64,000 nt of DNA from a candidate division FCPU426 bacterium (GTDB taxonomy: Bacteria; Oederibacteriota; PGYV01; Palsa-1178), in NCBI GenBank assembly GCA_963840035.1, contig CAWIXE010000003.1, positions 32,001 to 96,000 of the forward strand, written 5' to 3'. A program made the translations under genes and the position numbers. Below the pieces are notes generated by a model. The model was not told the DNA's origin, made no database searches, and was given only the letters and a program-made list of their open reading frames with translations. Of the stretch, positions 3,908 to 24,010 are shown piece after piece. The first letter of the stretch is position 1. Each line of letters starts with the position of its first letter.

Positions 3908-3951
3908 TTGACAAGCATGGCGCTTTCGTGTATATTTGTAATCATTACAAA
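3908..3951 (+). promoter_or_regulatory. sigma70 promoter overlapped by a Fur/PerR-like operator
   Basis: TTGACA(3908)-N17-TATATT(3931); perfect 8-1-8 palindrome TTTGTAAT-C-ATTACAAA at 3935-3951. Confidence 0.7.
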
Positions 3952-4043
3952 GTTGTTATGTAGTCAAACTTGTAAAAAAAGTTGAAAATGAGTATTTATA
4001 GGCTATAATTATAAGGCAACATCAAATCTAAGGGAGGCTTAAA

Positions 4044-4535
4044 ATGATCGGAAAAAAAATGGAAGCGGCAATCAACAAGCAGATCAACGCGGAGTTTTAC
4101 TCGTCTTTTCTTTATCTCTCAATGTCGGCTGATTTTGAATCAAAGAATTTAAGGGGTATTGCCCAGTGGCTTAAAGTACAGGCTGAAGAGGAAACAAAAC
4201 ACGCGATGAGGTTTTATACGCATCTTGTTGATAGGTCAGGAAAGGTAAAACTCGACGCCATAGACGCGCCAAAGCAGGAGTGGAAATCAGCGCTTGAAGC
4301 TTTTGAAGAAGCATACGCGCATGAGCAGAAAGTCACCGGCATGATCTACAAACTCGTGGAAATTTCCAAAGACGAAAAAGACTACGCCGCTGAATCAATG
4401 CTCAAATGGTTTGTTGACGAGCAGGTTGAAGAAGAAGCCCAGACCCTGGAGATAGTTGACATATTAAAAATGATAGGCGACTCAAAAGGTTCGCTATTCC
4501 AGCTCGACCATAAGCTCGGACACAGAAAAGACTAA
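4044..4535 (+). CDS. ftnA: Non-heme ferritin
   Basis: NKQINAEFYSS, QAEEETKH, HEQKVT, WFVDEQVEEE ferroxidase motifs. Confidence 0.95.
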   Translation: MIGKKMEAAINKQINAEFYSSFLYLSMSADFESKNLRGIAQWLKVQAEEETKHAMRFYTHLVDRSGKVKLDAIDAPKQEWKSALEAFEEAYAHEQKVTGMIYKLVEISKDEKDYAAESMLKWFVDEQVEEEAQTLEIVDILKMIGDSKGSLFQLDHKLGHRKD

Positions 4536-4555
4536 AAAATCTGACGGAGCGCGTG

Positions 4556-4984
4556 ATGGAAAACACAAAATTCAGCCCTAAGGAAACCGGCGACAGGCTT
4601 AAGTCAAAAGGAATAAAACCTTCTGTCATCAGGATAAAGGTCCTTCAGTACCTGCTTGAGAACAGGGCCCACCCGAATGCCGACGCCATACACCGGTCTC
4701 TTTCCCGCGAGATGCCCACGCTCTCAAAGACAAGCATATATAACGCCCTTAAATTATTTTCCGAAAAAGGAATGGTAACGGAAATAAAGGGCGAGAATGG
4801 GGAACTGCGTTACGACGGCTATACGAACAGGCACGCGCATTTCCTGTGCACGGAGTGCGGCAAGCTTTTTGACATAGACCTTGAGTGCCAGGCATGCAAA
4901 AGCAAAGACCTTATTGGTTCAAAGATAACAGAGGAATCTGTTTACTTAAAGGGGCTGTGCGCCTCCTGTAATAAGCAGGGATAA
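4556..4984 (+). CDS. Fur-family regulator, probably PerR-like
   Basis: HPNADAI, SKTSIYNAL, HAHFLCTECG and C-terminal CASC; located inside the oxidative-stress operon. Confidence 0.9.
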   Translation: MENTKFSPKETGDRLKSKGIKPSVIRIKVLQYLLENRAHPNADAIHRSLSREMPTLSKTSIYNALKLFSEKGMVTEIKGENGELRYDGYTNRHAHFLCTECGKLFDIDLECQACKSKDLIGSKITEESVYLKGLCASCNKQG

Positions 4985-4988
4985 CGCC

Positions 4989-5489
4989 ATGGCCGGGATA
5001 CTGAAAAGCGGCGCTAAGGCGCCCGCGTTTAAGCTAAAGGACGCTAAGGAAAACGAAGTAAGCCTGAAGGACTTCGCGGGCAGCTGGGTAGTGCTCTATT
5101 TTTATCCGAAAGACAATACGCCTGGATGCACCATAGAGGCTAAGGATTTCACAAAGGAACTGGCCGGTTTTGAAAAGCTCGGCGCCCGGATCCTCGGAGT
5201 CTCCGCGGACTCATGTGAAAGCCACAGAAAATTCATAACAAAACAAAATTTAAAAATAACTTTATTGTCGGACGAATCAAAAACCGTGCTGAAAAAGTAC
5301 GGCGTATGGGGGAAGAAGAATTTCATGGGAAAAAGTTTTATGGGGGTTATCCGCACTACATACCTCATAGACCCTAAGGGGAAAGTGGCGCGCGTGTGGG
5401 AAGAAGTATCCGTAAAAGGGCACGCGGGGGATGTGAAAAAAGCCGTTAAGGATTTTCAGACGGAAACCGGAGGAATTAATGGGAAATAA
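4989..5489 (+). CDS. bcp: Bcp/PrxQ peroxiredoxin
   Basis: YFYPKDNTPGCTIEA motif. Confidence 0.93.
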   Translation: MAGILKSGAKAPAFKLKDAKENEVSLKDFAGSWVVLYFYPKDNTPGCTIEAKDFTKELAGFEKLGARILGVSADSCESHRKFITKQNLKITLLSDESKTVLKKYGVWGKKNFMGKSFMGVIRTTYLIDPKGKVARVWEEVSVKGHAGDVKKAVKDFQTETGGINGK

Positions 5490-6657
5490 GCTGGCGGAAA
5501 ATGTTTATCTGGTAGGGGCGAAACACTGGGACAGGAAGTTATTTGACGAGTTGATACCGCTGCCTGACGGCACAAGCTACAATTCATATCTTGTCAAGGG
5601 GTCGGATAAGACGGCGCTGATAGATACCGTAGACCCGGCAGTCAGGGAACAGCTTTTCGAAAACCTGAAAAAACTGGGAATTAAAAAAATAGACTACGTC
5701 ATAGCAAACCACGCTGAGCAGGACCATTCAGGATCCATACCTTACGTGCTGGCGGCGTTCCCTGAAGCGGTGCTCGTCACGAATGAAAAGTGCGCGGCTA
5801 TGCTCAAGGATTTTACCCTGATTACGGACAGCAGGCTTAAGGTAATTAAGGACGGCGAAACCATTGACCTGGGCGGGAAAACCCTTGAGTTCTGCCTTAT
5901 CCCGTGGGTACACTGGCCCGAGACCATGTCAACCTATCTTAAGGAAGACGGAATACTTTTTTCATGCGATTTCTTCGGCTCGCACGTGGCAGCCGCGGAT
6001 ATGTTCGACTCCGCTCATTTTTACAGGCAGGCAAAGCGCTACTACGCCGAGATAATGTCCCCCTTCAGGAACAATGTCAGGAATAACATCGCAAAAGTCG
6101 AAAAATTCAAACTGAATATAATCGCGCCGTCCCATGGCTATATACACACAAAACCACAGGCTATAATTGACGCCTATAAGGACTGGTCGTCTGAGAGCGT
6201 AAAAAATGAAGTGGTGCTGGCGTATATCTCCATGCACGATTCCACAAAGAAAATGGCCGAGTACTTAAGGGAAGCCCTGATAGACCGCGGCATAGATGTG
6301 CATTTTTTCAACCTTTCGGGTGCTGACCTGGGAGAGATAGCCATGCAGCTGGTGGACGCGGCAACTCTCGTGCTCGGAGCGCCAACAGTGCTTGCCGGGC
6401 TTCATCCGGTGGGAATGAACATCGCGTATATCGCGAACGCCCTGCGGCCGAAGACGAAGTTTGTGTCGCTTATTACCTCCTTTAGCTGGGGGGAAAAAGC
6501 GGCAGAGGCTGTTAAGGCCACACTTACTAATTTTAAGGCCGAACTGTTAACTCCGGTCATATCTAAGGGATATCCGAAGGAAGCGGAATTTAAGGAATTG
6601 GACAGACTGGCCGACGAAATAGCGGCTAAGCATAAGGAGATAGGGGTACTTAAATAA
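5479..6657 (+). CDS. fprA: Flavodiiron protein (A-type flavoprotein, O2/NO reductase)
   Basis: GTSYNSYL, HAEQDH, HWPE, CDFFG, PSHG motifs plus C-terminal flavodoxin domain. Confidence 0.93.
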   Translation: MGNKLAENVYLVGAKHWDRKLFDELIPLPDGTSYNSYLVKGSDKTALIDTVDPAVREQLFENLKKLGIKKIDYVIANHAEQDHSGSIPYVLAAFPEAVLVTNEKCAAMLKDFTLITDSRLKVIKDGETIDLGGKTLEFCLIPWVHWPETMSTYLKEDGILFSCDFFGSHVAAADMFDSAHFYRQAKRYYAEIMSPFRNNVRNNIAKVEKFKLNIIAPSHGYIHTKPQAIIDAYKDWSSESVKNEVVLAYISMHDSTKKMAEYLREALIDRGIDVHFFNLSGADLGEIAMQLVDAATLVLGAPTVLAGLHPVGMNIAYIANALRPKTKFVSLITSFSWGEKAAEAVKATLTNFKAELLTPVISKGYPKEAEFKELDRLADEIAAKHKEIGVLK

Positions 6658-6658
6658 T

Positions 6659-6787
6659 ATTTTAGATTTTTGATTGCAGATTTTAGATTTAATGAGCTCC
6701 GCGGCACTATTATAATAGAGCCATGGAATACCTTAAATTTAAAATATAAAATTTGAAATCTAAAATTACAAAAACGGAGGTATTATC
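6659..6787. repeat. ~130-bp intergenic unit, copy 1 (inverted TTTTAGA/TCTAAAA 7-mer arms)
   Basis: Near-identical to 7173-7297; central TATTATAATA palindrome; ends in AAACGGAGGTA RBS. Confidence 0.85.
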
Positions 6788-7168
6788 ATGGCAAAAGCTT
6801 TAGAGATCTACAAATGCGCGAAATGCGGGAATGTAATTGAAGTACTCATCGGCGGAAACGGGGAGCTTGTGTGCTGCGGCGAGCCCATGAAGCTGCTTGA
6901 CGAGAAGAACAAGGAAGGCGCCGGGGAAAAGCATCTGCCGGTCATCGAACTTAAGGACAATGGCGTGCTAATCAAAGTTGGCTCAGTGCCGCATCCTATG
7001 GACGCTGACCACTGGATACAGTTCATAGAGGTCATCCGCAAGGACGGAAAAGTCGGCAGGAAAAACCTGAATCCGGGCGACAAACCAGAGGCTTTCTTCA
7101 TTATGAAGAAAGAGGACATCCTGCAGGTCAGGGAGCTTTGCAATAAACACGGGCTCTGGACGGCGTAA
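6788..7168 (+). CDS. dfx: Desulfoferrodoxin (2Fe superoxide reductase)
   Basis: CAKCGN...CCG, EKHLP, HPM..DHWIQ, CNKHG. Confidence 0.96.
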   Translation: MAKALEIYKCAKCGNVIEVLIGGNGELVCCGEPMKLLDEKNKEGAGEKHLPVIELKDNGVLIKVGSVPHPMDADHWIQFIEVIRKDGKVGRKNLNPGDKPEAFFIMKKEDILQVRELCNKHGLWTA

Positions 7169-7172
7169 GGCG

Positions 7173-7297
7173 ATTTTAGATTTTTGATTGCAGATTTTAG
7201 ATTTAAGGAAGGTGAGGCGTTTATTATAATAGAGCCATGGAATACCTTAAATCTAAAATATAAAATTTGAAATATAAAATAAACGGAGGTAATTGAA
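7173..7297. repeat. ~130-bp intergenic unit, copy 2
   Basis: Direct repeat of 6659-6787. Confidence 0.85.
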
Positions 7298-7873
7298 ATG
7301 GCATCGTTAAAGGGAACACAGACTGAAAAAAACCTTCTCGCTTCGTTCGCGGGGGAGTCGCAGGCGCGCAACCGGTACACGTTTTTCGCTTCACAGGCAA
7401 AAAAGGACGGATTCGAACAGATATCGGCCATATTTTTAGAGACGGCCGAGAATGAAAGGGAACACGCGAAAAGGTTCTTTAAGTTCCTTGAAGGCGGGGC
7501 AGTGGAGATTACGGCAATGTACCCGGCGGGACAGATAGCCACAACGCTCGAGAACCTGAAAGCCTCGGCCGAGGGTGAACACGAGGAGCATTCAAAGATA
7601 TACCCTAAATTTGCGGATATCGCCGAAAAAGAAGGGTTTAAGGACGTTGCCGCCGCGTTTAAGTATATAGCAAAGGTCGAAGTGGAGCATGAGAACAGGT
7701 ACTCAAAACTTATAGCAAATATAGAAAATGAGCAGGTATTTAAAAAGGACGGCAAAGTGCGCTGGAAATGCAGGAACTGCGGCTTAGTGCACGAAGGCCC
7801 CGAAGCCCCGGAAAAATGCCCGGCATGCCTGCACCCGAAAACGTACTTTGAGATAAAAGAGACGAATTACTGA
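7298..7873 (+). CDS. rbr: Rubrerythrin
   Basis: FAGESQARNRY, ENEREHA, EVEHE, C-terminal WKCRNCG...CPAC. Confidence 0.96.
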   Translation: MASLKGTQTEKNLLASFAGESQARNRYTFFASQAKKDGFEQISAIFLETAENEREHAKRFFKFLEGGAVEITAMYPAGQIATTLENLKASAEGEHEEHSKIYPKFADIAEKEGFKDVAAAFKYIAKVEVEHENRYSKLIANIENEQVFKKDGKVRWKCRNCGLVHEGPEAPEKCPACLHPKTYFEIKETNY

Positions 7874-7877
7874 TATA

Positions 7878-7954
7878 GTCCCAGGACCCATGACCCAAGA
7901 CCCAGAAATACAGGCCCGTTATTGACTTGGGTCATGGGTCTTGGGGCATGGGAC
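7878..7954. repeat. Inverted tandem-heptamer element (GACCCAN unit, 4+4)
   Basis: gtcccag gacccat gacccaa gacccag ... ttgggtc atgggtc ttggggc atgggac. Confidence 0.8.
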
Positions 7955-7971
7955 AAACAGAATGGGGAAAA

Positions 7972-9717
7972 ATGGGAAAAACAAAAAAGGGTAAAAAAAC
8001 AACCACAACAGCGTCCAGCTTTAACATTGTATTAGCCGGCGAGGCCGGGCAGGGGATACAGTCGATAGAAACCATCCTTGTTTCCATCCTGAAAAAAGAC
8101 GGCTTTAATACCTTTGCCACCAAGGAGTACATGTCCAGGATACGCGGCGGGGTTAATTCAACGGAAATCAGGGTATCTGACAAACCCGTGCGCTCGCATT
8201 CTTCATCCATAGACCTGCTTATCCCGTTCAGCAACGAATCTATAGGGCACCTTCAAAAACGCATTTCAAAGTCAACGGTTATACTGGCCGATAAAACCAA
8301 CGTTACTGACAGCAAAATCACGAACATACCTTTTCAGCGCATAGCTTCGGAGTTCGGCGATGTTATTTACACCAATACGGTCGCCGTGGGCACGATATGC
8401 GGAATACTCGGCACGTCGGAAGACGTGATGGCCGCTGAAATAACCTCGCGTTTCTCAAAAAAGGGCGATGAGGTTGTGGCCAAGAACATACAGTCCGCGA
8501 AAAGCGGTTATACCATAGGAAGTGAGCTTGTAAAGAACGGCATCATAAAATCCGTGGTAAAAAAAGACCCGTCAGTTATTCACCAGTACATGTTAAGCGG
8601 GGCTGACGCAGTGGCGCTCGGCGCGATTGCCGGAGGGTGTGATTCCTGTTTTGCATACCCCATGACCCCCGGTACGTCGGTATTTACATTTATGGCGGAT
8701 AATCAGAACAGGACGGGGATGGCAGTCGAGCAGGTGGAAGATGAGATAGGAGTAATTAACATGGCCATCGGAGCCTGGTACGCGGGCGGGCGTTCAATGG
8801 TTTCCACATCAGGCGGCGGGTTTGCGCTCATGACCGAAGGCGTATCGCTCGCCGGCATGATAGAATCACCGGTTGTAATTCATCTGGCGCAGAGGCCGGG
8901 GCCGGCCACGGGACTGCCCACAAGGACCCAGCAGGGGGACCTGAACATGGCATTATACGCGGGACACGGTTTTTTTTCCCGCATCATACTCGCGCCCGGC
9001 GACACTAAACAGGCGTTTTATTTGACCCAGCGGGCTTTTAACCTGGCGGCAGAGTTCCAGCTGCCGGTTTTCATTTTGACTGACCAGTACTTTGTGGACT
9101 CATATTATAATGAAAAAGGAATAAGCGTAAATGGGCTCAGCATAGACAAGCATATAACAGAAACAGCCCCGGGATATAAAAGATACGCTTACACAAAGGA
9201 CGGAATATCACCCAGGGGAGTCCCGGGTTACGGGGCCGGAATGGTATGCGCGGATTCAGACGAGCATGACGAAGAGGGGCGCATAACAGAGGATTTGGAC
9301 GGAGTCAGGCAAAAGATGACGGAGAAAAGGATGAAGAAGGCGGAAACGGTTAAAAAGGCGGCTTTAGCGCCGGAACTTATAGGGCCTAAGGATTATAAGA
9401 AACTGATCGTGAGCTGGGGTTCAAACTACAATACCATAAAGGAAGCCATGGAAATCATAAATGATAAGGCGCTCGCTTTCCTGCACTTTCCGCAGGTTTA
9501 CCCGCTGCCAAAAGAAACAGCCGCGTACTTAAAGAAAACCAAAAAAATTATCCTTATAGAAAATAATGAGACAGGCCAGTTTGGAGACCTGATAAAACTT
9601 GAAACAGGAATAGATATTAAGGAACGGATACTTAAGTTTAACGGCATGCCGTTTAGCGTGGAAGAAATAGTCAGCAGTCTCAAGACCCAGGACCCGGGGC
9701 CCAAAAAACATAAATAG
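7972..9717 (+). CDS. 2-oxoacid:ferredoxin oxidoreductase alpha subunit (gamma-alpha fusion)
   Basis: AGEAGQG, EYMSRIRGG, AYPMTP, EDEI, TSGGGFALMTE, QRPGPATGLPT; substrate not determinable. Confidence 0.93.
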   Translation: MGKTKKGKKTTTTASSFNIVLAGEAGQGIQSIETILVSILKKDGFNTFATKEYMSRIRGGVNSTEIRVSDKPVRSHSSSIDLLIPFSNESIGHLQKRISKSTVILADKTNVTDSKITNIPFQRIASEFGDVIYTNTVAVGTICGILGTSEDVMAAEITSRFSKKGDEVVAKNIQSAKSGYTIGSELVKNGIIKSVVKKDPSVIHQYMLSGADAVALGAIAGGCDSCFAYPMTPGTSVFTFMADNQNRTGMAVEQVEDEIGVINMAIGAWYAGGRSMVSTSGGGFALMTEGVSLAGMIESPVVIHLAQRPGPATGLPTRTQQGDLNMALYAGHGFFSRIILAPGDTKQAFYLTQRAFNLAAEFQLPVFILTDQYFVDSYYNEKGISVNGLSIDKHITETAPGYKRYAYTKDGISPRGVPGYGAGMVCADSDEHDEEGRITEDLDGVRQKMTEKRMKKAETVKKAALAPELIGPKDYKKLIVSWGSNYNTIKEAMEIINDKALAFLHFPQVYPLPKETAAYLKKTKKIILIENNETGQFGDLIKLETGIDIKERILKFNGMPFSVEEIVSSLKTQDPGPKKHK

Positions 9718-9757
9718 CAGTTTTTTGACTTGGGTCATGAGCCATGGGTCTTGGGAC
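9677..9757. repeat. Inverted tandem-heptamer element (GACCCAN unit), left arm inside the 3' end of the alpha-subunit CDS
   Basis: gtctcaa gacccag gacccgg ggcccaa ... ttgggtc atgagcc atgggtc ttgggac. Confidence 0.78.
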
Positions 9758-9771
9758 ATACAAGGAGCTTT

Positions 9772-10626
9772 ATGGAAAATCTATTCGACAGAGGCAAAGA
9801 CACAGCATGGTGTCCCGGATGCGGGAATTTCGGAATCAGGAACATAATGCTTAAAGCCATTGCCGAGCTCGGGTTAAAACAGGAAGAGGTTGTTTTTGCC
9901 TCCGGCATAGGCCAGGCTGCCAAGGCGCCTCAATACTATAATGCCAGCTATTTTAACGGGCTTCACGGCAGGTCATTGCCGGCAGCCGCGGGAATCAAGG
10001 CCGCGAATCCAAATGTAAAGCTTATTGTGGAAAGCGGCGACGGCGACATGTACGGCGAGGGAGGGAACCATTTCATCCACGCCATCAGGAGGAACCCGGA
10101 CATAACAGTGGTCGTACATAATAATATGGTTTACGGCCTGACCAAAGGCCAGGCTTCACCGACATCATCCATAGGCATGCGTACTCCCATACAGGTGAAC
10201 GGCGTTTTTGAAACACCGATAAACCCTATAGCACTTGCCATATCGCTTAACGCTTCTTTTGTGGCGCGCGGTTCCGCAGGGGAGCAGGAGCGGACAAAAG
10301 AAATCATAAAACAGGCCATAAACCACAGGGGCTTTGCGCTTGTGGATGTTTTCCAGGCGTGTATTTCCTTCAATAAGATAAACACGTTCAAATGGTTTAA
10401 AGAGCACACATATTTTCTGGAAGAAGGGTATGACCCCGGCAACAGGGAAGCGGCGTTTAAGCGCGCGCTTGAAACAGACCCCATGCCGCTGGGCATATTT
10501 TATAAGAACGCCGCACTGCCGGTTTTTGAGGACAACCTCGCGCCGTATAAGACGGATAAAACACCGCTTTACAAGAGGGCAAACGGTTTAAGAATTGCCG
10601 AAGAAATACTTAATTCAAAAAAGTAA
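9772..10626 (+). CDS. 2-oxoacid:ferredoxin oxidoreductase beta subunit (TPP-binding)
   Basis: [37 protein letters not shown] before ATG 9772. Confidence 0.94.
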
Positions 10627-10685
10627 GGAACAAATGCAAATACCGGGTGTTGCCACACGTTTTCGCATAAGCTTCAACGTGCATG

Positions 10686-10753
10686 GCCGGCTCACCCCTA
10701 CGAAACCGGGGCATGTTTTCACGCCTTCGTAGGGGCGAGCCGGTGGCTCGCCC
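10686..10753. repeat. GTAG-type REP-like hairpins
   Basis: ggctcacccctac ... gtaggggcgagcc-ggt-ggctcgccc. Confidence 0.6.
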
Positions 10754-10778
10754 GGACTTTCAACGCAGGAGGTTTAAC

Positions 10779-11243
10779 ATGGGACGTATTAAGGTCGGCG
10801 ACAAATTCGGGGATTTTATGCTGAAAAACCAGAGCGACCTGGAGATAGACACGGCGGGAATTGAGGACAAAAAAATCCTGCTTTCATTCCACCCGCTGGC
10901 ATGGACAAGCGTTTGCGCAAAGCAGATGCAGTCGCTCGAGGACAAATACGAGGGCTTCGCTGATTTGAATACCATACCCTTAGGCATCTCCATTGACACC
11001 TCGCCGAGCAAAAAAGCGTGGGCCGAGAGCCTCGGCATAGAACAGCTCGACCTGCTTGCTGATTTCTGGCCGCACGGGGAATTAGCCTCCAGGATGGGGA
11101 TTTTCCTGGATAAGTTCGGTTTTTCGGAAAGGGCGAACATAATCCTGGATGAACAGCGCAAGGTCATATTTGTGAAAGTTTACCCGATAAAAGAACTGCC
11201 GGATGTAAAGGAACTCCTGGAGTTCCTTAAAAAATCAAAGTAA
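10779..11243 (+). CDS. AhpC/TSA-family (AhpE-like) peroxiredoxin/redoxin
   Basis: FHPLAWTSVC peroxidatic motif, LADFWPHG, ERA; AGGAGG RBS before ATG 10779. Confidence 0.88.
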   Translation: MGRIKVGDKFGDFMLKNQSDLEIDTAGIEDKKILLSFHPLAWTSVCAKQMQSLEDKYEGFADLNTIPLGISIDTSPSKKAWAESLGIEQLDLLADFWPHGELASRMGIFLDKFGFSERANIILDEQRKVIFVKVYPIKELPDVKELLEFLKKSK

Positions 11244-11257
11244 GCACAGGAGGAAAT

Positions 11258-11632
11258 ATGAAAAGAATTTTGTTAGCGCTTATTTTTATGCTGTCCGTTT
11301 TAGCCGCAGCCGTTGCCACACCGCCCAGTGACATTATAATCACTTTTGACCTGTCAAAATCCATGGTATTTGCCGATATCATTCACGAGACCAAGGCGCC
11401 GAAGGACCATTATATCTACATGGTACAGGTCAATATCAACGGAAAAAAAGCCATAAAGCAGGAGATGACCGAACAGCTCAATTCCGCCCTGCAGAAAGTG
11501 GCTTACATCATCCCCGGCTTGAAAGCGGGGGATAAGGTTTCTGTCGACGCCGACTGCAATAAGTACGGTGATCTGACCGTGGAAGCGGTGGCGAAAGACG
11601 CTCCGGCAAAAAAAGACAAAAAGAAGAAATAA
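11258..11632 (+). CDS. Exported protein with degenerate superoxide-reductase-like motifs
   Basis: Signal peptide; H....DHYI..V and CNKYG echo HP...DHWIQ and CNKHG of the dfx gene in this window. Confidence 0.55.
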   Translation: MKRILLALIFMLSVLAAAVATPPSDIIITFDLSKSMVFADIIHETKAPKDHYIYMVQVNINGKKAIKQEMTEQLNSALQKVAYIIPGLKAGDKVSVDADCNKYGDLTVEAVAKDAPAKKDKKKK

Positions 11633-11641
11633 GGGGATGAC

Positions 11642-12403
11642 ATGAAAAAAACAATTGCGTTGGTCATTGCCTTCATGCTGGCGGCGGTATTTATTTTCGC
11701 GGAACAGTACGAGAACCCGATGCTTAACATGACGGTCCCGTCGGGGCTGGAAGACGGGCAGGCGTACATAGTCATCAACCATATGTTCTTAAGCACCCTG
11801 CATGACTATCCCACGGACGACTTTTATGCCGTCTTCGACGGAGGCGCTAACTTTGGGCTGGGTTTCAGGTACATGATAGGCTGGGGCATAGAGGCAAAGG
11901 CCGGTTATACCACGAAAAACAGGGAGCAGTCAGCGGGCTTAAGCTACACCTTTAAAGCGCCTAAACTGTTCTTTAACGCGCAGGCGGATGTGAGTTTCTT
12001 TTCATACAGGGATTTTGTGCACTCCAACTACGACCAGAACCTCTTTTACCTGCTTTCTTTGCAGAGCGTGCCTTTGCTTGACGACATTTTTGTCCTGTCA
12101 GTGGACGCGGGATATGACGGGTATAACCAGAATTTCGGGATGTCAGTGGGATTAAGCGCCGAAGTCCTTAAGCACCTGAGGGTGATTGCCGAATACTACC
12201 CGGTCTTTAAAGGGCCTGACGCGAGCCCTCTCATCGGGAATACGGGCTACTTTTCTTTCGGCCTCAAATACGACACTTTCGGGCACCAGTTTATACTCAG
12301 GGCTGGGAATTCATCCGATATAGGGACCCGGGTGCTGATGCTTGGCACAAATAAGCAGGATATTTATGTGGGGCTTACAATTATGAGGCTGATAGCATTT
12401 TAA
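11642..12403 (+). CDS. Outer-membrane beta-barrel protein (DUF5777-like), paralog 1
   Basis: Signal peptide, amphipathic strands, NHMF, AEYYP, TFGHQFIL..GNS, C-terminal F; DUF5777 assignment from remembered motif pattern. Confidence 0.65.
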   Translation: MKKTIALVIAFMLAAVFIFAEQYENPMLNMTVPSGLEDGQAYIVINHMFLSTLHDYPTDDFYAVFDGGANFGLGFRYMIGWGIEAKAGYTTKNREQSAGLSYTFKAPKLFFNAQADVSFFSYRDFVHSNYDQNLFYLLSLQSVPLLDDIFVLSVDAGYDGYNQNFGMSVGLSAEVLKHLRVIAEYYPVFKGPDASPLIGNTGYFSFGLKYDTFGHQFILRAGNSSDIGTRVLMLGTNKQDIYVGLTIMRLIAF

Positions 12404-12415
12404 GAAGGAGGAACA

Positions 12416-12976
12416 ATGAAAAAAATATTTGCCGCCTTTTTGCTATTAATACTGTCAGGGTTTGTATTTTCCTGCTCAACGCATAAAAATGAGCCGGCCG
12501 CTCCTGTGATACCGACTCCTGATATTAACGGTTATTACGGCGCGACATCAGCCGGCGCAACCTTCAAATGGAAGATCAACGGTTTAAGGCTGGACTGTAA
12601 GCTCAGCGCCGCCACCACAGGCTGGATCGGCATAGGGTTCGGTCCGGACGGCACCATGGCGAACGCGCAGAATTTTATCATGGGATATGTCACCTCGGGA
12701 AATATCGCCACCATAAGCGATATGCATACTTCGGGCCACGCCGCGCCTTCGCCTGATGCTATGCAGAACATCATAAACCCGGCAGGCACGGAGTCGGCCG
12801 GCGTTACGGAGCTTACTTTTACCATACCGCTAGATTCAGGCGACAGTGAAGACATGGTCCTTACCCCAAACATGAGCGTCTGGCTGCTATTCGCGGCCGG
12901 GCCCAATGGAGCGGATGATTTTACAACTCCGCACGGGTCGTCGGGGTACGGCGCTTTACAGATTACATTGTATTAA
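12416..12976 (+). CDS. DOMON-domain lipoprotein, paralog 1
   Basis: Lipobox VFSC; TGWIGIGFG...M, GTESAGVTELTFTIPL, TPHG (Met/His heme-ligand positions). Confidence 0.82.
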   Translation: MKKIFAAFLLLILSGFVFSCSTHKNEPAAPVIPTPDINGYYGATSAGATFKWKINGLRLDCKLSAATTGWIGIGFGPDGTMANAQNFIMGYVTSGNIATISDMHTSGHAAPSPDAMQNIINPAGTESAGVTELTFTIPLDSGDSEDMVLTPNMSVWLLFAAGPNGADDFTTPHGSSGYGALQITLY

Positions 12977-13000
12977 AATTTAAAATAGGAGAAAACAAAA

Positions 13001-13561
13001 ATGGTTAAAAAAATTATACTTATATTTTTATCAGCACTTCTTATTTTTTTAGTCTCATGCACAAAAGCTTCATCCCCGGGAGAACCCTCCACACCGCCTA
13101 CGCCGGATGTTAACGGGTATTACACCGTGTCAGCCGCGGGAGTGACTTTTAAATGGAAGGTAAACGGAGCAAACCTCGACTGCAAATTAAGTGCGGCAAC
13201 CACGGGCTGGGTGGGAGTAGGGTTCGGTACAACCGGGAACATGATAGATGCAAAAGATTTTGTTATGGGCTATGTAACAGGCGGGACTACAGCGACAATC
13301 AGCGACAGGCATGCGGATGGATACAACCCGCCGCCGGTAGATACAGTACAGCACATATCAAACCCCGCAGGTACAGAAGCATCAGGAACAACGGAAATAA
13401 CCTACACAATACCGCTTAATTCATTGGACGCGCAGGACATGGCGCTTACGCAGAACATGAGTTTATGGATTCTGCTCGCGCGTGGGTCAAACGGGGCCGA
13501 TAATTTTACAACCCAGCACGTATCAGGCGGATTTGGCGCCGTACAGACTACACTATACTGA
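13001..13561 (+). CDS. DOMON-domain lipoprotein, paralog 2
   Basis: Lipobox LVSC; TGWVGVGFG...M, GTEASGTTEITYTIPL, TQH; closely similar to 12416-12976. Confidence 0.82.
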   Translation: MVKKIILIFLSALLIFLVSCTKASSPGEPSTPPTPDVNGYYTVSAAGVTFKWKVNGANLDCKLSAATTGWVGVGFGTTGNMIDAKDFVMGYVTGGTTATISDRHADGYNPPPVDTVQHISNPAGTEASGTTEITYTIPLNSLDAQDMALTQNMSLWILLARGSNGADNFTTQHVSGGFGAVQTTLY

Positions 13562-13573
13562 TAAGGGGAAAAA

Positions 13574-14386
13574 ATGAAAAAAATCGCGATAACAGCGTTG
13601 TTGGTACTTTTAACGGCAGGAATCTCTGCGGTACAGTATGAGACGCCGCTGCTCGACATGACTGTGCCGTCCGGCCTGACTGACAATTCTTTGTATTTCA
13701 ATTTTGGGCATAAGTTCGGCCAACCGCTTAACGATTATCCATCAAACAATTCTTTCGCGCTGCTGAAAAATGGCGCGACGCTTAACCTCGCGCTGCGGTA
13801 TATGGTGTGGAACGGGATTGAAGCAAAAGCGGCGTATGATTCGCTCGCGGACGAGAAGAATATAGGGTTAAGCTACGCCCGCAAATTCCCTGAGCTGTTT
13901 TTTAGCGCGCAGGCTGACCTGCAGTTTTTCAGCTATGACGATCCGGGAAGGTTCCAGACGGCCAAAAATTTCTTTTACCTGATATCCCTGCAGTCTGTGC
14001 CCCTTGTGGATAACAGGTTTACCATAGCCGTGGACGCCGGATATGACGGATACTTTGACACGACCAGGTTCGCGTTGGGTATAAGCGCGGAAGTAATTAA
14101 GGACGTGGCGCTCGTTTTTGAATACTACCCCCAGCCGCCCGCGCTATCAGCAGGAGACGGTGACGGCGATGAAGACGGCGGCGGAGCCGCGGTTTCAGGG
14201 CCTGCTGTCAATGGCTGCTACAGCATAGGGATAAAGTACGCCACTTATGGACATCAATTCATGCTGAAGTTCGGAAACTCCACTGCCATGGAAACAAGGA
14301 CATTAATGCAGGGGACAACTTCCGAAAATATATACGTGGGCATCAGCATAATGAGGCTGGTGGATTTCATGGAGAAGTCTGAATAA
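13574..14386 (+). CDS. Outer-membrane beta-barrel protein (DUF5777-like), paralog 2
   Basis: Signal peptide; GHKFG, FEYYP, TYGHQFML..GNS; paralog of 11642-12403 with an acidic Gly-rich loop insertion. Confidence 0.65.
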   Translation: MKKIAITALLVLLTAGISAVQYETPLLDMTVPSGLTDNSLYFNFGHKFGQPLNDYPSNNSFALLKNGATLNLALRYMVWNGIEAKAAYDSLADEKNIGLSYARKFPELFFSAQADLQFFSYDDPGRFQTAKNFFYLISLQSVPLVDNRFTIAVDAGYDGYFDTTRFALGISAEVIKDVALVFEYYPQPPALSAGDGDGDEDGGGAAVSGPAVNGCYSIGIKYATYGHQFMLKFGNSTAMETRTLMQGTTSENIYVGISIMRLVDFMEKSE

Positions 14387-14415: not shown

Positions 14416-14463
14416 GGCGTATTCAACTATTGTGTGCTTTAGGGTATAATAGTTGAGTACGCC
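14416..14463. terminator. Long hairpin, probable terminator
   Basis: ggcgtattcaactatt ... aatagttgagtacgcc (16-bp stem, one G-U) with A-run before and T-rich tract after. Confidence 0.55.
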
Positions 14464-14485
14464 GTTAGTTTTTAAGGTGCTGTCC

Positions 14486-14598
14486 GTCATTGCGAGGAGG
14501 CGTTTTAGTTTTATGCCAACGAAGCAATCTTGTTGTTGTTCAGGGCGAAATCGAGATTGCTTCGTCACCATAAGACAGGAACGGTTCCTCGCAATGAC
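14486..14598 (+). repeat. GTCATTGCGAG...CTCGCAATGAC palindromic element, copy 1 of 5
   Basis: Terminal IR GTCATTGCGAGG/CCTCGCAATGAC; inner CGAAGCAATCT/AGATTGCTTCG stem. Confidence 0.88.
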
Positions 14599-14631
14599 AG
14601 CAGTTTAACTGATTTATGACGAAGGAGATAT

Positions 14632-22937: not shown

Positions 22938-24010
22938 CGGTTCTAACATTTAACGCAACACTTTGATAGGATTATATTATCAAAGGAGGCGTTAATAACC
23001 AATGAACAATCCGAACTACAAAAGGTTAAGTTTCGAAGAACGGGAAGAAATTAGCAGGTATTTAGCAAGTGGTCTAAAAGCTGGCCGAATAGCAATGTTG
23101 ATAGGTAGAAATAGAAGCACCATAACGAGAGAAATAAGAAAGGGTTTTAAAACAAATACATATCGCGCGGTACAGGCGAATAATAGAGCCAAAAGAAACG
23201 CCAAAAGGCGAAGGTTCGGAAAACGTAAGATAGATAAGTGCAAAAGGTTAAAAAGGTTCATTGAAAAGCATCTCTGGTTAAAGTGGTCGCCGGAACAGAT
23301 TGCAGAAAAATTAAAAATAGAGTATCCTACGGACATGGACATGAGAATATCACCCGAGAGTATTTATGCATATTTGTATGTGAAGCCCAAAAGCCACTTG
23401 AAAAGAGAGCTGCTAAAGCAGTTTCGGCAAAAGCATTCCAGGCGGTTTAAAAGGAATGCCAGAATGACCGGAATTGCAAAGGATTTAGAAGATATAACAA
23501 GCATAGATGAACGGCCTGCGGAAGTTGAAACACGAGAGATTCCCGGACACTGGGAAGGCGACTTAATGATTGGCAGACTTCGGCAGTCAGCCATCGGAAC
23601 GCTTGTTGAAAGAAAAACAAGGTATTTACGGATTGTCCGGTTAAAAAACAGGACTGCAAAAGAAGTCAAGAAACAATTTGAAGCTACGTTTAAGAAACAC
23701 CCTAAACAACTTAGATTGAGCATGACATATGACCAAGGCAGAGAAATGGCGGATCATAAGGCGCTAAGTAAGGCGTTAAATATTAAGATATATTTTGCGC
23801 ACAAGAGAAGCCCGTGGGAACGTGGAACAAATGAAAACACAAATGGGTTAATACGGCAGTTTTTCCCTAAAGGCACAGACTTCAATAAGATAAGTTTAAA
23901 AGAACTCAGGTATGCAGAAAGACTGTTAAATCAAAGACCCAGAAAAACTTTGGGCTGGAAAACACCCGAAGAGGCGTTTTATCAAGATGTTGCGTTAAAT
24001 ACTTGAAACC
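22938..24010 (+). mobile_element. IS30-family insertion sequence
   Basis: Imperfect terminal IRs sharing ATTTAACGCAACA (22948-22960) / TGTTGCGTTAAAT (23988-24000); ends approximate to within a few bp. Confidence 0.9.
23002..24006 (+). CDS. IS30-family transposase
   Basis: GRNRSTITREI HTH, WSPEQIA, GHWEGDL, TYDQGRE, PWERGTNENTNGLIRQFFPK. Confidence 0.96.
   Translation: MNNPNYKRLSFEEREEISRYLASGLKAGRIAMLIGRNRSTITREIRKGFKTNTYRAVQANNRAKRNAKRRRFGKRKIDKCKRLKRFIEKHLWLKWSPEQIAEKLKIEYPTDMDMRISPESIYAYLYVKPKSHLKRELLKQFRQKHSRRFKRNARMTGIAKDLEDITSIDERPAEVETREIPGHWEGDLMIGRLRQSAIGTLVERKTRYLRIVRLKNRTAKEVKKQFEATFKKHPKQLRLSMTYDQGREMADHKALSKALNIKIYFAHKRSPWERGTNENTNGLIRQFFPKGTDFNKISLKELRYAERLLNQRPRKTLGWKTPEEAFYQDVALNT

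Follow-up and report, generated by a model that had tools for sequence, protein, structure and literature searches.

A gene block of DUF5777 barrels, DOMON lipoproteins and an exported superoxide reductase-like protein, candidate envelope end of an oxidant-defence operon

The five-gene block

The window analysed here is a stretch of 64,000 nucleotides from a candidate division FCPU426 bacterium (assembly GCA_963840035.1, contig CAWIXE010000003.1, positions 32,001 to 96,000), and we were interested in five of its genes, which encode SORL, an exported protein with a putative superoxide reductase (SOR) fold, two outer-membrane barrels of the family DUF5777 (A and A') and two lipoproteins with a DOMON domain (B and B'). 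An earlier sequence-only reading had described them as a candidate extracytoplasmic redox module independent of CxxCH cytochromes. In window coordinates the genes are:

11258..11632, + strand: SORL, exported putative SOR-fold protein, 124 amino acids, no Pfam family
11642..12403, + strand: barrel A, DUF5777 outer-membrane barrel (Pfam), 253 amino acids, with His47 and His215 (HRF and GHxF motifs)
12416..12976, + strand: DOMON lipoprotein B (Pfam), 186 amino acids, with Cys20, Met81 and His173, predicted b-haem binder
13001..13561, + strand: DOMON lipoprotein B' (Pfam), 186 amino acids, with Cys20, Met81 and His173, predicted b-haem binder
13574..14386, + strand: barrel A', DUF5777 outer-membrane barrel, 270 amino acids, 12-stranded AlphaFold2 model

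All genes are co-oriented with gaps of 9, 12, 24 and 12 bp, and for each of the five a hydrophobic signal at the N-terminus and a purine-rich ribosome site were found, so that open reading frames, spacing and export signals were as first described. SORL starts 14 bp past the stop of the preceding peroxiredoxin gene (AhpC-TSA by Pfam), confirming that the block follows it directly. The Pfam search that the sequence-only reading had proposed placed both families above their cut-offs, with 42.4 and 40.3 bits for DUF5777 (PF19089; curated cut-off 23.1) and 74 and 71 bits for DOMON (PF03351); B' also matched the CDH-cyt family below cut-off (E 9e-5), and for B/B' the ESM Atlas features gave 0.97. 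A scan with NCBIfam led to no hit above its family cut-off for any block gene. Both DOMON proteins have the lipobox Cys20, and a CxxCH motif is absent from all five proteins. The genome (3.46 Mb on 3 contigs, 98.3% complete) holds 2 DUF5777 genes, 1 SORL gene and 5 DOMON genes in total.

The order A-B-B'-A' had been read as a symmetric architecture. The order is real, but it reflects two units end to end: barrel A groups with the barrel of genome G003, which stands in the order SORL-barrel-DOMON, and barrel A' with those of G004 and G016, which stand in the order DOMON-barrel, both with strong support. The DOMONs B and B' group together with the G003 copy (unrooted), and B' may be a duplicate of B or may have been converted by it; sequence identity is 46% between the barrels and 58% between the DOMONs. 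The window thus joins two unit types, barrel-DOMON and then DOMON-barrel, each found alone in relatives, and symmetry as a designed feature was rejected because A and A' group with different unit types.

Folds and predicted cofactor sites

The Met (GTM/GNM) and His (TPH/TQH) noticed earlier in both DOMONs were found as Met81 and His173. Of 82 barrel-adjacent DOMON domains, 75 keep Met81 and 66 keep His173, the latter position being a gap (truncated) in 11; this supports a haem-type pair. The two residues were equated with the haem pair by motif position: they fall where the available part of PMC10691727 places the pair of the cellobiose dehydrogenase (CDH) type, whose domain ligates haem b via Met/His, and the same text describes sugar-binding DOMONs as being without the pair. 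B and B' are predicted to bind b-type haem through Met81/His173. For the DOMON of dopamine beta-hydroxylase, the conserved Asp residues are assigned to a group 1 or 2 metal site (PMC4846438, excerpt). Searches of solved structures with the DOMON profiles gave weak matches only (NxrC, E 0.056; dopamine beta-hydroxylase, E 0.96), and the B' profile alone matched nothing there.

DOMON proteins were also observed in other settings. Both G002 and contig C2 of this genome have Met/Met variants. On C2 a second DOMON lies in an oxidant/iron operon (L027, 7734-10421), which contains an Fe/Mn superoxide dismutase, a pirin, a DOMON lipoprotein in which Met replaces the His ligand and a bacterioferritin-like gene, and no barrel. 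A second barrel-DOMON pairing, with a different barrel, was seen on contig C1 (L028, 6659-10445) and in G002 (L025, 4705-11784), where DOMON lipoproteins lie by a larger porin-like protein and an ankyrin protein; L025 additionally has an FMN-binding protein and a polyferredoxin membrane protein. A WOR-3 DOMON subgroup (L085, L087, L089, L090) has lost Met81 and both His and stands directly 3' of the barrel; at two of the loci a DOMON copy that is intact comes next. In Cloacimonadota, lipoproteins with three tandem DOMONs come directly after the barrel (L100-L102, L105, L106, L110, L114, L115, L117), and other loci of that phylum encode DOMON with FlgD-Ig and a sorting tail.

SORL belongs to a large exported family without annotation (1476 representatives at E<=0.001, clustered at 50% identity), with a family site of mature N-terminal His, His43, His51 and Cys100. 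Among the 148 best homologs, His43 is kept in 147, His51, Gln73, Cys100 and Gly104 in 148 each, and 129 have His directly behind the signal peptide; among barrel-adjacent copies the N-terminal His is present in 30 of 33. The position of SOR's fourth His (CxxH) is F, G, S or Y in 119/148, and in the window protein Tyr103 stands there and Thr replaces the N-terminal His. The AlphaFold2 model (predicted local distance difference test, pLDDT, 98) shows an immunoglobulin (Ig)-like fold; its structural matches, SoxZ (Z 10.5) and Giardia SOR (Z 10.4), lie barely above generic Ig domains. Comparison with SOR domains of desulfoferrodoxin by hhalign gave P 65% with two motifs aligned, and ESM Atlas listed a desulfoferrodoxin at TM 0.73; against solved structures the profile reached a superoxide reductase at E 1.3 only, and Foldseek gave no match at E<=0.001. 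The SOR site is Fe(His)4(Cys) (PMC3116461, excerpt), a set of which the window protein has two His and the Cys. As SOR requires four His and Cys, the SORL family does not belong to it, and the earlier label "SOR-like" applies to three ligands, probably to the fold, and fails for the full site, with the family missing the fourth His and the window copy two of the four. The free N-terminal amine could fill the missing ligand position in the family, and the window SORL, with Thr at that position, may be weakened. An archaeal ESM Atlas cluster of 196 members has a SORL-like part in proteins of 267 amino acids, with cytochrome b561 in 68%.

For barrel A', AlphaFold2 led to a model with 12 strands (pLDDT 88), in line with the predicted outer-membrane barrel. 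KdgM, GalP, FapF, COG4313 and NanC were matched at Z 16-18, best KdgM (Z 18.4, root-mean-square deviation 2.4 over 167 residues), and the copper channel PcoB ranked 19th (Z 11.9). Among 87 aligned barrels, His47 (80), Glu184 (86), Thr212 (85) and His215 (86) are near-fixed and Phe217, Asn223 and Arg249 are found in all 87; both His motifs also recur in 8/8 distant DUF5777 proteins. His47 and His215 share the register of hydrophobic strand positions, judged from hydrophobic alternation, which suggests that they face lipid at opposite membrane rims. An ideal 12-stranded barrel has a calculated C-alpha to C-alpha diameter of 21-22 A and cannot hold a DOMON domain of 150 residues, so the MtrAB-like conduit brought up in the sequence-only reading is ruled out by size as a barrel with the DOMON plugged in, and the block is not an insulated wire of that type.

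Gene neighbourhoods and operon context

We compared barrel neighbourhoods in other genomes, most of them incomplete assemblies. Two broad barrel alignments were not conserved enough for the locus scan, and a four-sequence alignment was used instead. Eighty-one loci were scored, with 11 duplicates left out (L067, L069-L072, L074-L076, L078, L082, L083); 2 had no profile barrel match and 5 were of distant types, leaving 74 loci, in which a neighbour is a gene within 1.5 kb of the barrel and kin are not independent. DOMON was a neighbour at 46 loci, SORL at 34, both at 17 and either at 63; when only loci flanked by 900 bp or more on each side were counted, the figures were 38/60, 31/60 and, for either, 53/60. 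By group, the DOMON and SORL counts were 5 and 6 in the bacterium's own phylum (11 loci), 8 and 8 in the G103 phylum (WOR-3; 15 loci), 25 and 11 in the G108 phylum (Cloacimonas; 30 loci), 0 and 8 in the G105 phylum (8 loci) and 8 and 1 in the remaining 10. The predicted linkage is therefore conserved in several phyla, although carrier genomes are a minority in each (11/99, 15/201 and 29/177 in the first three, 13/133 in the G105 phylum). SORL, barrel and DOMON together, mostly in that order, occur at the 17 loci in three phyla, and SORL-barrel pairs at 8/8 core loci of the G105 phylum, most by Fur, rubrerythrin or ferritin.

Electron carriers make up the other neighbours of the barrel. A Rieske lipoprotein was found at 4 of the 8 DOMON-less loci of the G105 phylum, a cupredoxin at 8 loci and a two-helix His protein at 15 (11 of which built its profile); four of these His proteins match DUF4405 below cut-off, a family of which a purified member gave haem b peaks (PMC11334425, excerpt). 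In G002 a ferric-reductase/FAD/NAD protein lies directly upstream of barrel-DOMON. On Bacteroidota plasmids a distant DUF5777 barrel stands by YceI and a c-type haem lipoprotein in 4/4 loci opened (of 5 matches), and a c-type haem lipoprotein adjoins the barrel in 3/5 distant loci of the G105 phylum; a CxxCH frame of any kind is present in only 2/53 loci of the DOMON/SORL subfamily. This linkage pattern points to a barrel with an exchangeable one-electron carrier, and the five genes would be the variant with b-haem of a wider module, DUF5777 plus carrier, in which Bacteroidota use a c-type cytochrome lipoprotein as the carrier. Proteins with c-haem, predicted b-haem, a Rieske centre or copper all occur in the carrier slot, and this limits what role the barrel can have. 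An obligatory pairing of one barrel with one DOMON, as the earlier reading had it, is not supported, given the loci without a DOMON within 1.5 kb (28/74). Six own-order barrel loci without DOMON also count against a fixed unit; in three of them the cluster is the same and a nitroreductase gene separates SORL from the barrel.

In the window, the block is preceded and followed by:

3936..3950, no strand: perfect 7-1-7 palindrome just past a sigma70-type -10 box at the operon head, predicted Fur/PerR-family operator
4044..11243, + strand: upstream oxidant-defence genes, by Pfam except for the oxidoreductase pair
14416..14463, + strand: 20-pair hairpin with T-rich tail after the last barrel gene, predicted terminator

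The upstream genes encode, in order, ferritin, a Fur-family regulator (possibly PerR, from its motifs), an AhpC/TSA (Bcp-type) peroxiredoxin, a flavodiiron-type protein, desulfoferrodoxin, rubrerythrin, what we take from its motifs to be a 2-oxoacid:ferredoxin oxidoreductase alpha/beta pair, and the second AhpC/TSA peroxiredoxin (likely start 10779). Ferritin is preceded by promoter-like sites at 3908-3936 and 3982-4009; the totals of promoter-like and terminator-like sites do not exceed those of shuffled sequence. The palindrome is the sole perfect match in the 3.46 Mb genome, and perfect copies occur at the same gene cluster in G003 and G004; it is thus predicted to be a conserved Fur/PerR-family operator. 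On the + strand, no convincing intergenic terminator was found ahead of 14416. The oxidant-defence context proposed earlier is borne out by upstream families, promoter-like sites and palindrome, and we infer that the block closes this operon and is co-transcribed with it under control of a Fur-family protein. SORL lies inside the oxidoreductase-to-transketolase cluster in 18/20 own-phylum genomes.

A possible envelope redox relay and its alternatives

Tentatively, with a likelihood somewhat short of even, we read the block as an envelope redox relay for oxidant defence that moves single electrons at the outer membrane. The block would be the cell-envelope end of the oxidant-defence operon, in which each DOMON lipoprotein would bind a b-type haem, taken from the environment, via Met81/His173 and would work with the small DUF5777 barrel and the periplasmic SOR-derived metal protein, and the relay would act beyond the cytoplasm, reducing or intercepting oxidants or Fe(III). 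Haem binding, contact between barrel and partners, direction of electron flow and substrate are all inferred. The relay is favoured because a one-electron centre, rather than haem as cargo, is what the barrel's partners have in common across lineages, and because of the oxidant-defence context; covalent haem c and Rieske proteins are carriers, not haemophores. Further points in its favour are the linkage of the barrel to DOMON and SORL and to electron carriers (Rieske, cupredoxin, two-helix His protein), the c-type haem lipoproteins by distant barrels, the conservation of Met81/His173, operator and terminator bracketing the operon, SORL in its conserved cluster and the archaeal SORL-like proteins with cytochrome b561. 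The earlier proposal of an outer-membrane haem or electron conduit or a system against reactive oxygen species is supported in part, in its families, barrel fold, haem-type Met/His pair, linkage, independence from CxxCH cytochromes and oxidant context, and not as an MtrAB-like conduit or an obligatory pair.

Several observations weigh against the relay. In 74/82 family DOMON domains a second His is present at position 111, where both window copies have Pro, and the window SORL is without the N-terminal His of most homologs. More than a third of the barrel loci have no DOMON nearby, 13/20 own-phylum SORL loci have no nearby barrel, and many DOMON-bearing loci of other phyla lie outside oxidant-defence clusters. 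Searches of this genome, in which control genomes answered, did not find HemB, HemC, cytochrome bd, catalase, haem peroxidase or ferric reductase, and only 4/67 carrier genomes have HemB, which leaves the haem supply unexplained. The operon contains no inner-membrane electron donor, and a search of this genome for the two-helix His protein was negative. With the same controls, cytochrome c assembly (PF01578) and YceI were not found in it either, the former as expected for a system independent of CxxCH cytochromes; a search for cytochrome b561 gave one match, below cut-off. A candidate for the donor is a flavinylation locus on contig C1 (ApbE, FMN-binding proteins, porins).

Besides ApbE, that locus (L147, 4880-13490; 70.9-79.5 kb of contig C1) has two genes each for FMN-binding and for porin-like proteins, NusG-II/HepS pairs and genes for two His-rich membrane proteins of about 170 amino acids that have no assignment; it is likely a flavinylation-based envelope electron-transfer locus.

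As HemB and HemC were not found, any haem loaded here would have to come from the environment, so that both haem capture and binding of non-haem metal stay in play. Haem capture, in which the DOMONs of haem auxotrophs would serve at the surface as haemophores or haem sinks and the barrel would display them or pass haem inward, is in our view unlikely. HemB was not found in 63/67 carriers, yet cytochrome c assembly is present in 7/20 carriers tested, and G003 has cytochrome bd while HemB and HemC were not found there; Met/Met DOMON variants also fit, and the three-DOMON lipoproteins and the DOMONs with secretion-sorting tails of Cloacimonadota are, by analogy, reminiscent of multi-domain haemophores. 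However, absence of HemB is the background state in the G103 phylum, where 18/201 genomes have it, and in the G105 phylum, with HemB in 45/133, the 8 carriers look like one clade. With these background rates, and with most of the genomes being incomplete assemblies, no enrichment of the module in haem auxotrophs can be claimed, and this idea was rejected, base rates and kinship accounting for the scarcity of HemB. In addition, cytochrome bd occurs in only 5/67 carriers, hardly any haem enzyme that captured haem could serve was recognised in this genome, the barrel is narrow and without a TonB plug, and the partners of homologous barrels, covalent haem c or Rieske proteins, are unable to hand haem on.

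We consider it rather unlikely that the block handles non-haem metal, with SORL and the DOMONs binding Fe or Cu and the barrel acting as a metal channel in reductive iron uptake or copper control. The proposed ligands would be the N-terminal amine and His, two His and the Cys of SORL and the Met and one or two His of the DOMONs. Such a system works without haem, the SORL ligand set starts at the mature N-terminus, in analogy to His-brace copper proteins, family DOMONs keep Met and two His, PcoB is among the barrel matches, and ferritin, Fur-family regulators, a ferric reductase-type protein and cupredoxins are neighbours. On the other hand PcoB ranks far under the sugar-acid porins, both window DOMONs are without the second His, so that exactly the haem-type pair is left, co-transcription of iron uptake genes with ferritin would not be expected, and the c-type cytochrome partners are left unexplained. 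That there is no single system, SORL belonging to the oxidant-defence operon and the barrel-DOMON units being independent surface modules for binding solutes or sugars that came to lie at its end and were duplicated incidentally, would fit the SORL loci without barrel, the barrels standing alone in G005, G006 and G007, the acidic-sugar porins as best barrel matches and the separate histories of the two units, but is improbable given the recurrent three-gene set, the SORL-barrel pairs of a fourth phylum and the Met/His pair, absent from sugar-binding DOMONs (PMC10691727, excerpt).

A bolder variant seems very doubtful to us: the DUF5777 barrels themselves would be cofactor-binding redox proteins, an A/A' dimer clamping two b-haems or quinones on its outer wall and thereby taking electrons through the outer membrane, from a His-brace SOR derivative in the periplasm to DOMON lipoproteins at the surface that hold scavenged haem, in effect a beta-barrel cytochrome b in anaerobes making no haem. 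It is built on His47 and His215 at opposite rims, near the invariant Arg249. A complex prediction of barrel A, DOMON B and haem (score 0.01, mark 0.32) is evidence neither way.

Compared with known systems, the relay shares with MtrCAB, PioAB and MtoAB an outer-membrane barrel gene by genes of exported haem proteins and a presumed envelope electron transfer. The window barrel, with 12 strands in the model, is however too narrow to sheathe a cytochrome (MtrB has 26), and its carriers have one predicted non-covalent haem each, no CxxCH and no cytochrome c assembly. The uncharacterised Bacteroidota sets of DUF5777, YceI and monohaem c lipoprotein have the same barrel family with two His motifs and a lipoprotein carrier adjoining the barrel; the window has DOMON and SORL instead of cytochrome c and YceI, and carriers mostly lack HemB. 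Like CYBDOM (cytochrome b561 with DOMON) and the CDH cytochrome domain, the Met/His DOMON is a predicted extracellular one-electron carrier, and at some related loci a membrane b-type cytochrome lies alongside, but here a bacterial lipoprotein and an outer-membrane barrel are found in an operon without membrane cytochrome. SORL resembles SOR centre II (neelaredoxin, desulfoferrodoxin, TAT-SOR) in Ig-like fold, His43/His51/Cys100 and oxidant-defence context and differs in the missing CxxH His, a Sec-type signal peptide and a first His at the mature N-terminus of the family. The 12-stranded porins KdgM, NanC, FapF and COG4313 share the barrel fold, with 8-14% identity, and have neither the DUF5777-specific His motifs nor, at our locus, a matching sugar-catabolism context. 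TonB-dependent haemophore systems of the HmuY-HmuR type differ in their large plugged receptor; the window locus has a 12-stranded barrel, and the matches to PF00593 (TonB-dependent receptor) lie elsewhere in the genome.

In a literature search with subscription papers outside its coverage, no paper naming DUF5777 was found, and searches for the barrel-DOMON-SORL architecture, including DOMON in Cloacimonadota and prokaryotic haem b DOMONs, found nothing; an MtrA-DOMON fusion is mentioned in the accessible part of PMC8805035. The module is real, conserved and unstudied, and extends the DUF5777 module beyond Bacteroidota. Little is known about oxidant handling and extracytoplasmic electron transfer in anaerobes that have no cytochromes c, and here the module offers three small expressible proteins, a Met/His DOMON lipoprotein, a 12-stranded barrel with two His and an exported member of a SOR-derived family. 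If the DOMONs bind haem, a redox function in these organisms would run on scavenged haem.

Some minor features of the window were also observed. Between the terminator and transketolase lies a palindromic dispersed repeat of about 115 bp (14481-14605), with dozens of copies, 70-88% identical, on all three contigs. Near-identical AT-rich imperfect inverted repeats precede desulfoferrodoxin (6660-6790) and rubrerythrin (7170-7297), and downstream of the pentose-phosphate genes a transposase-like open reading frame (23002-24006) carries what we take to be IS30-type motifs.

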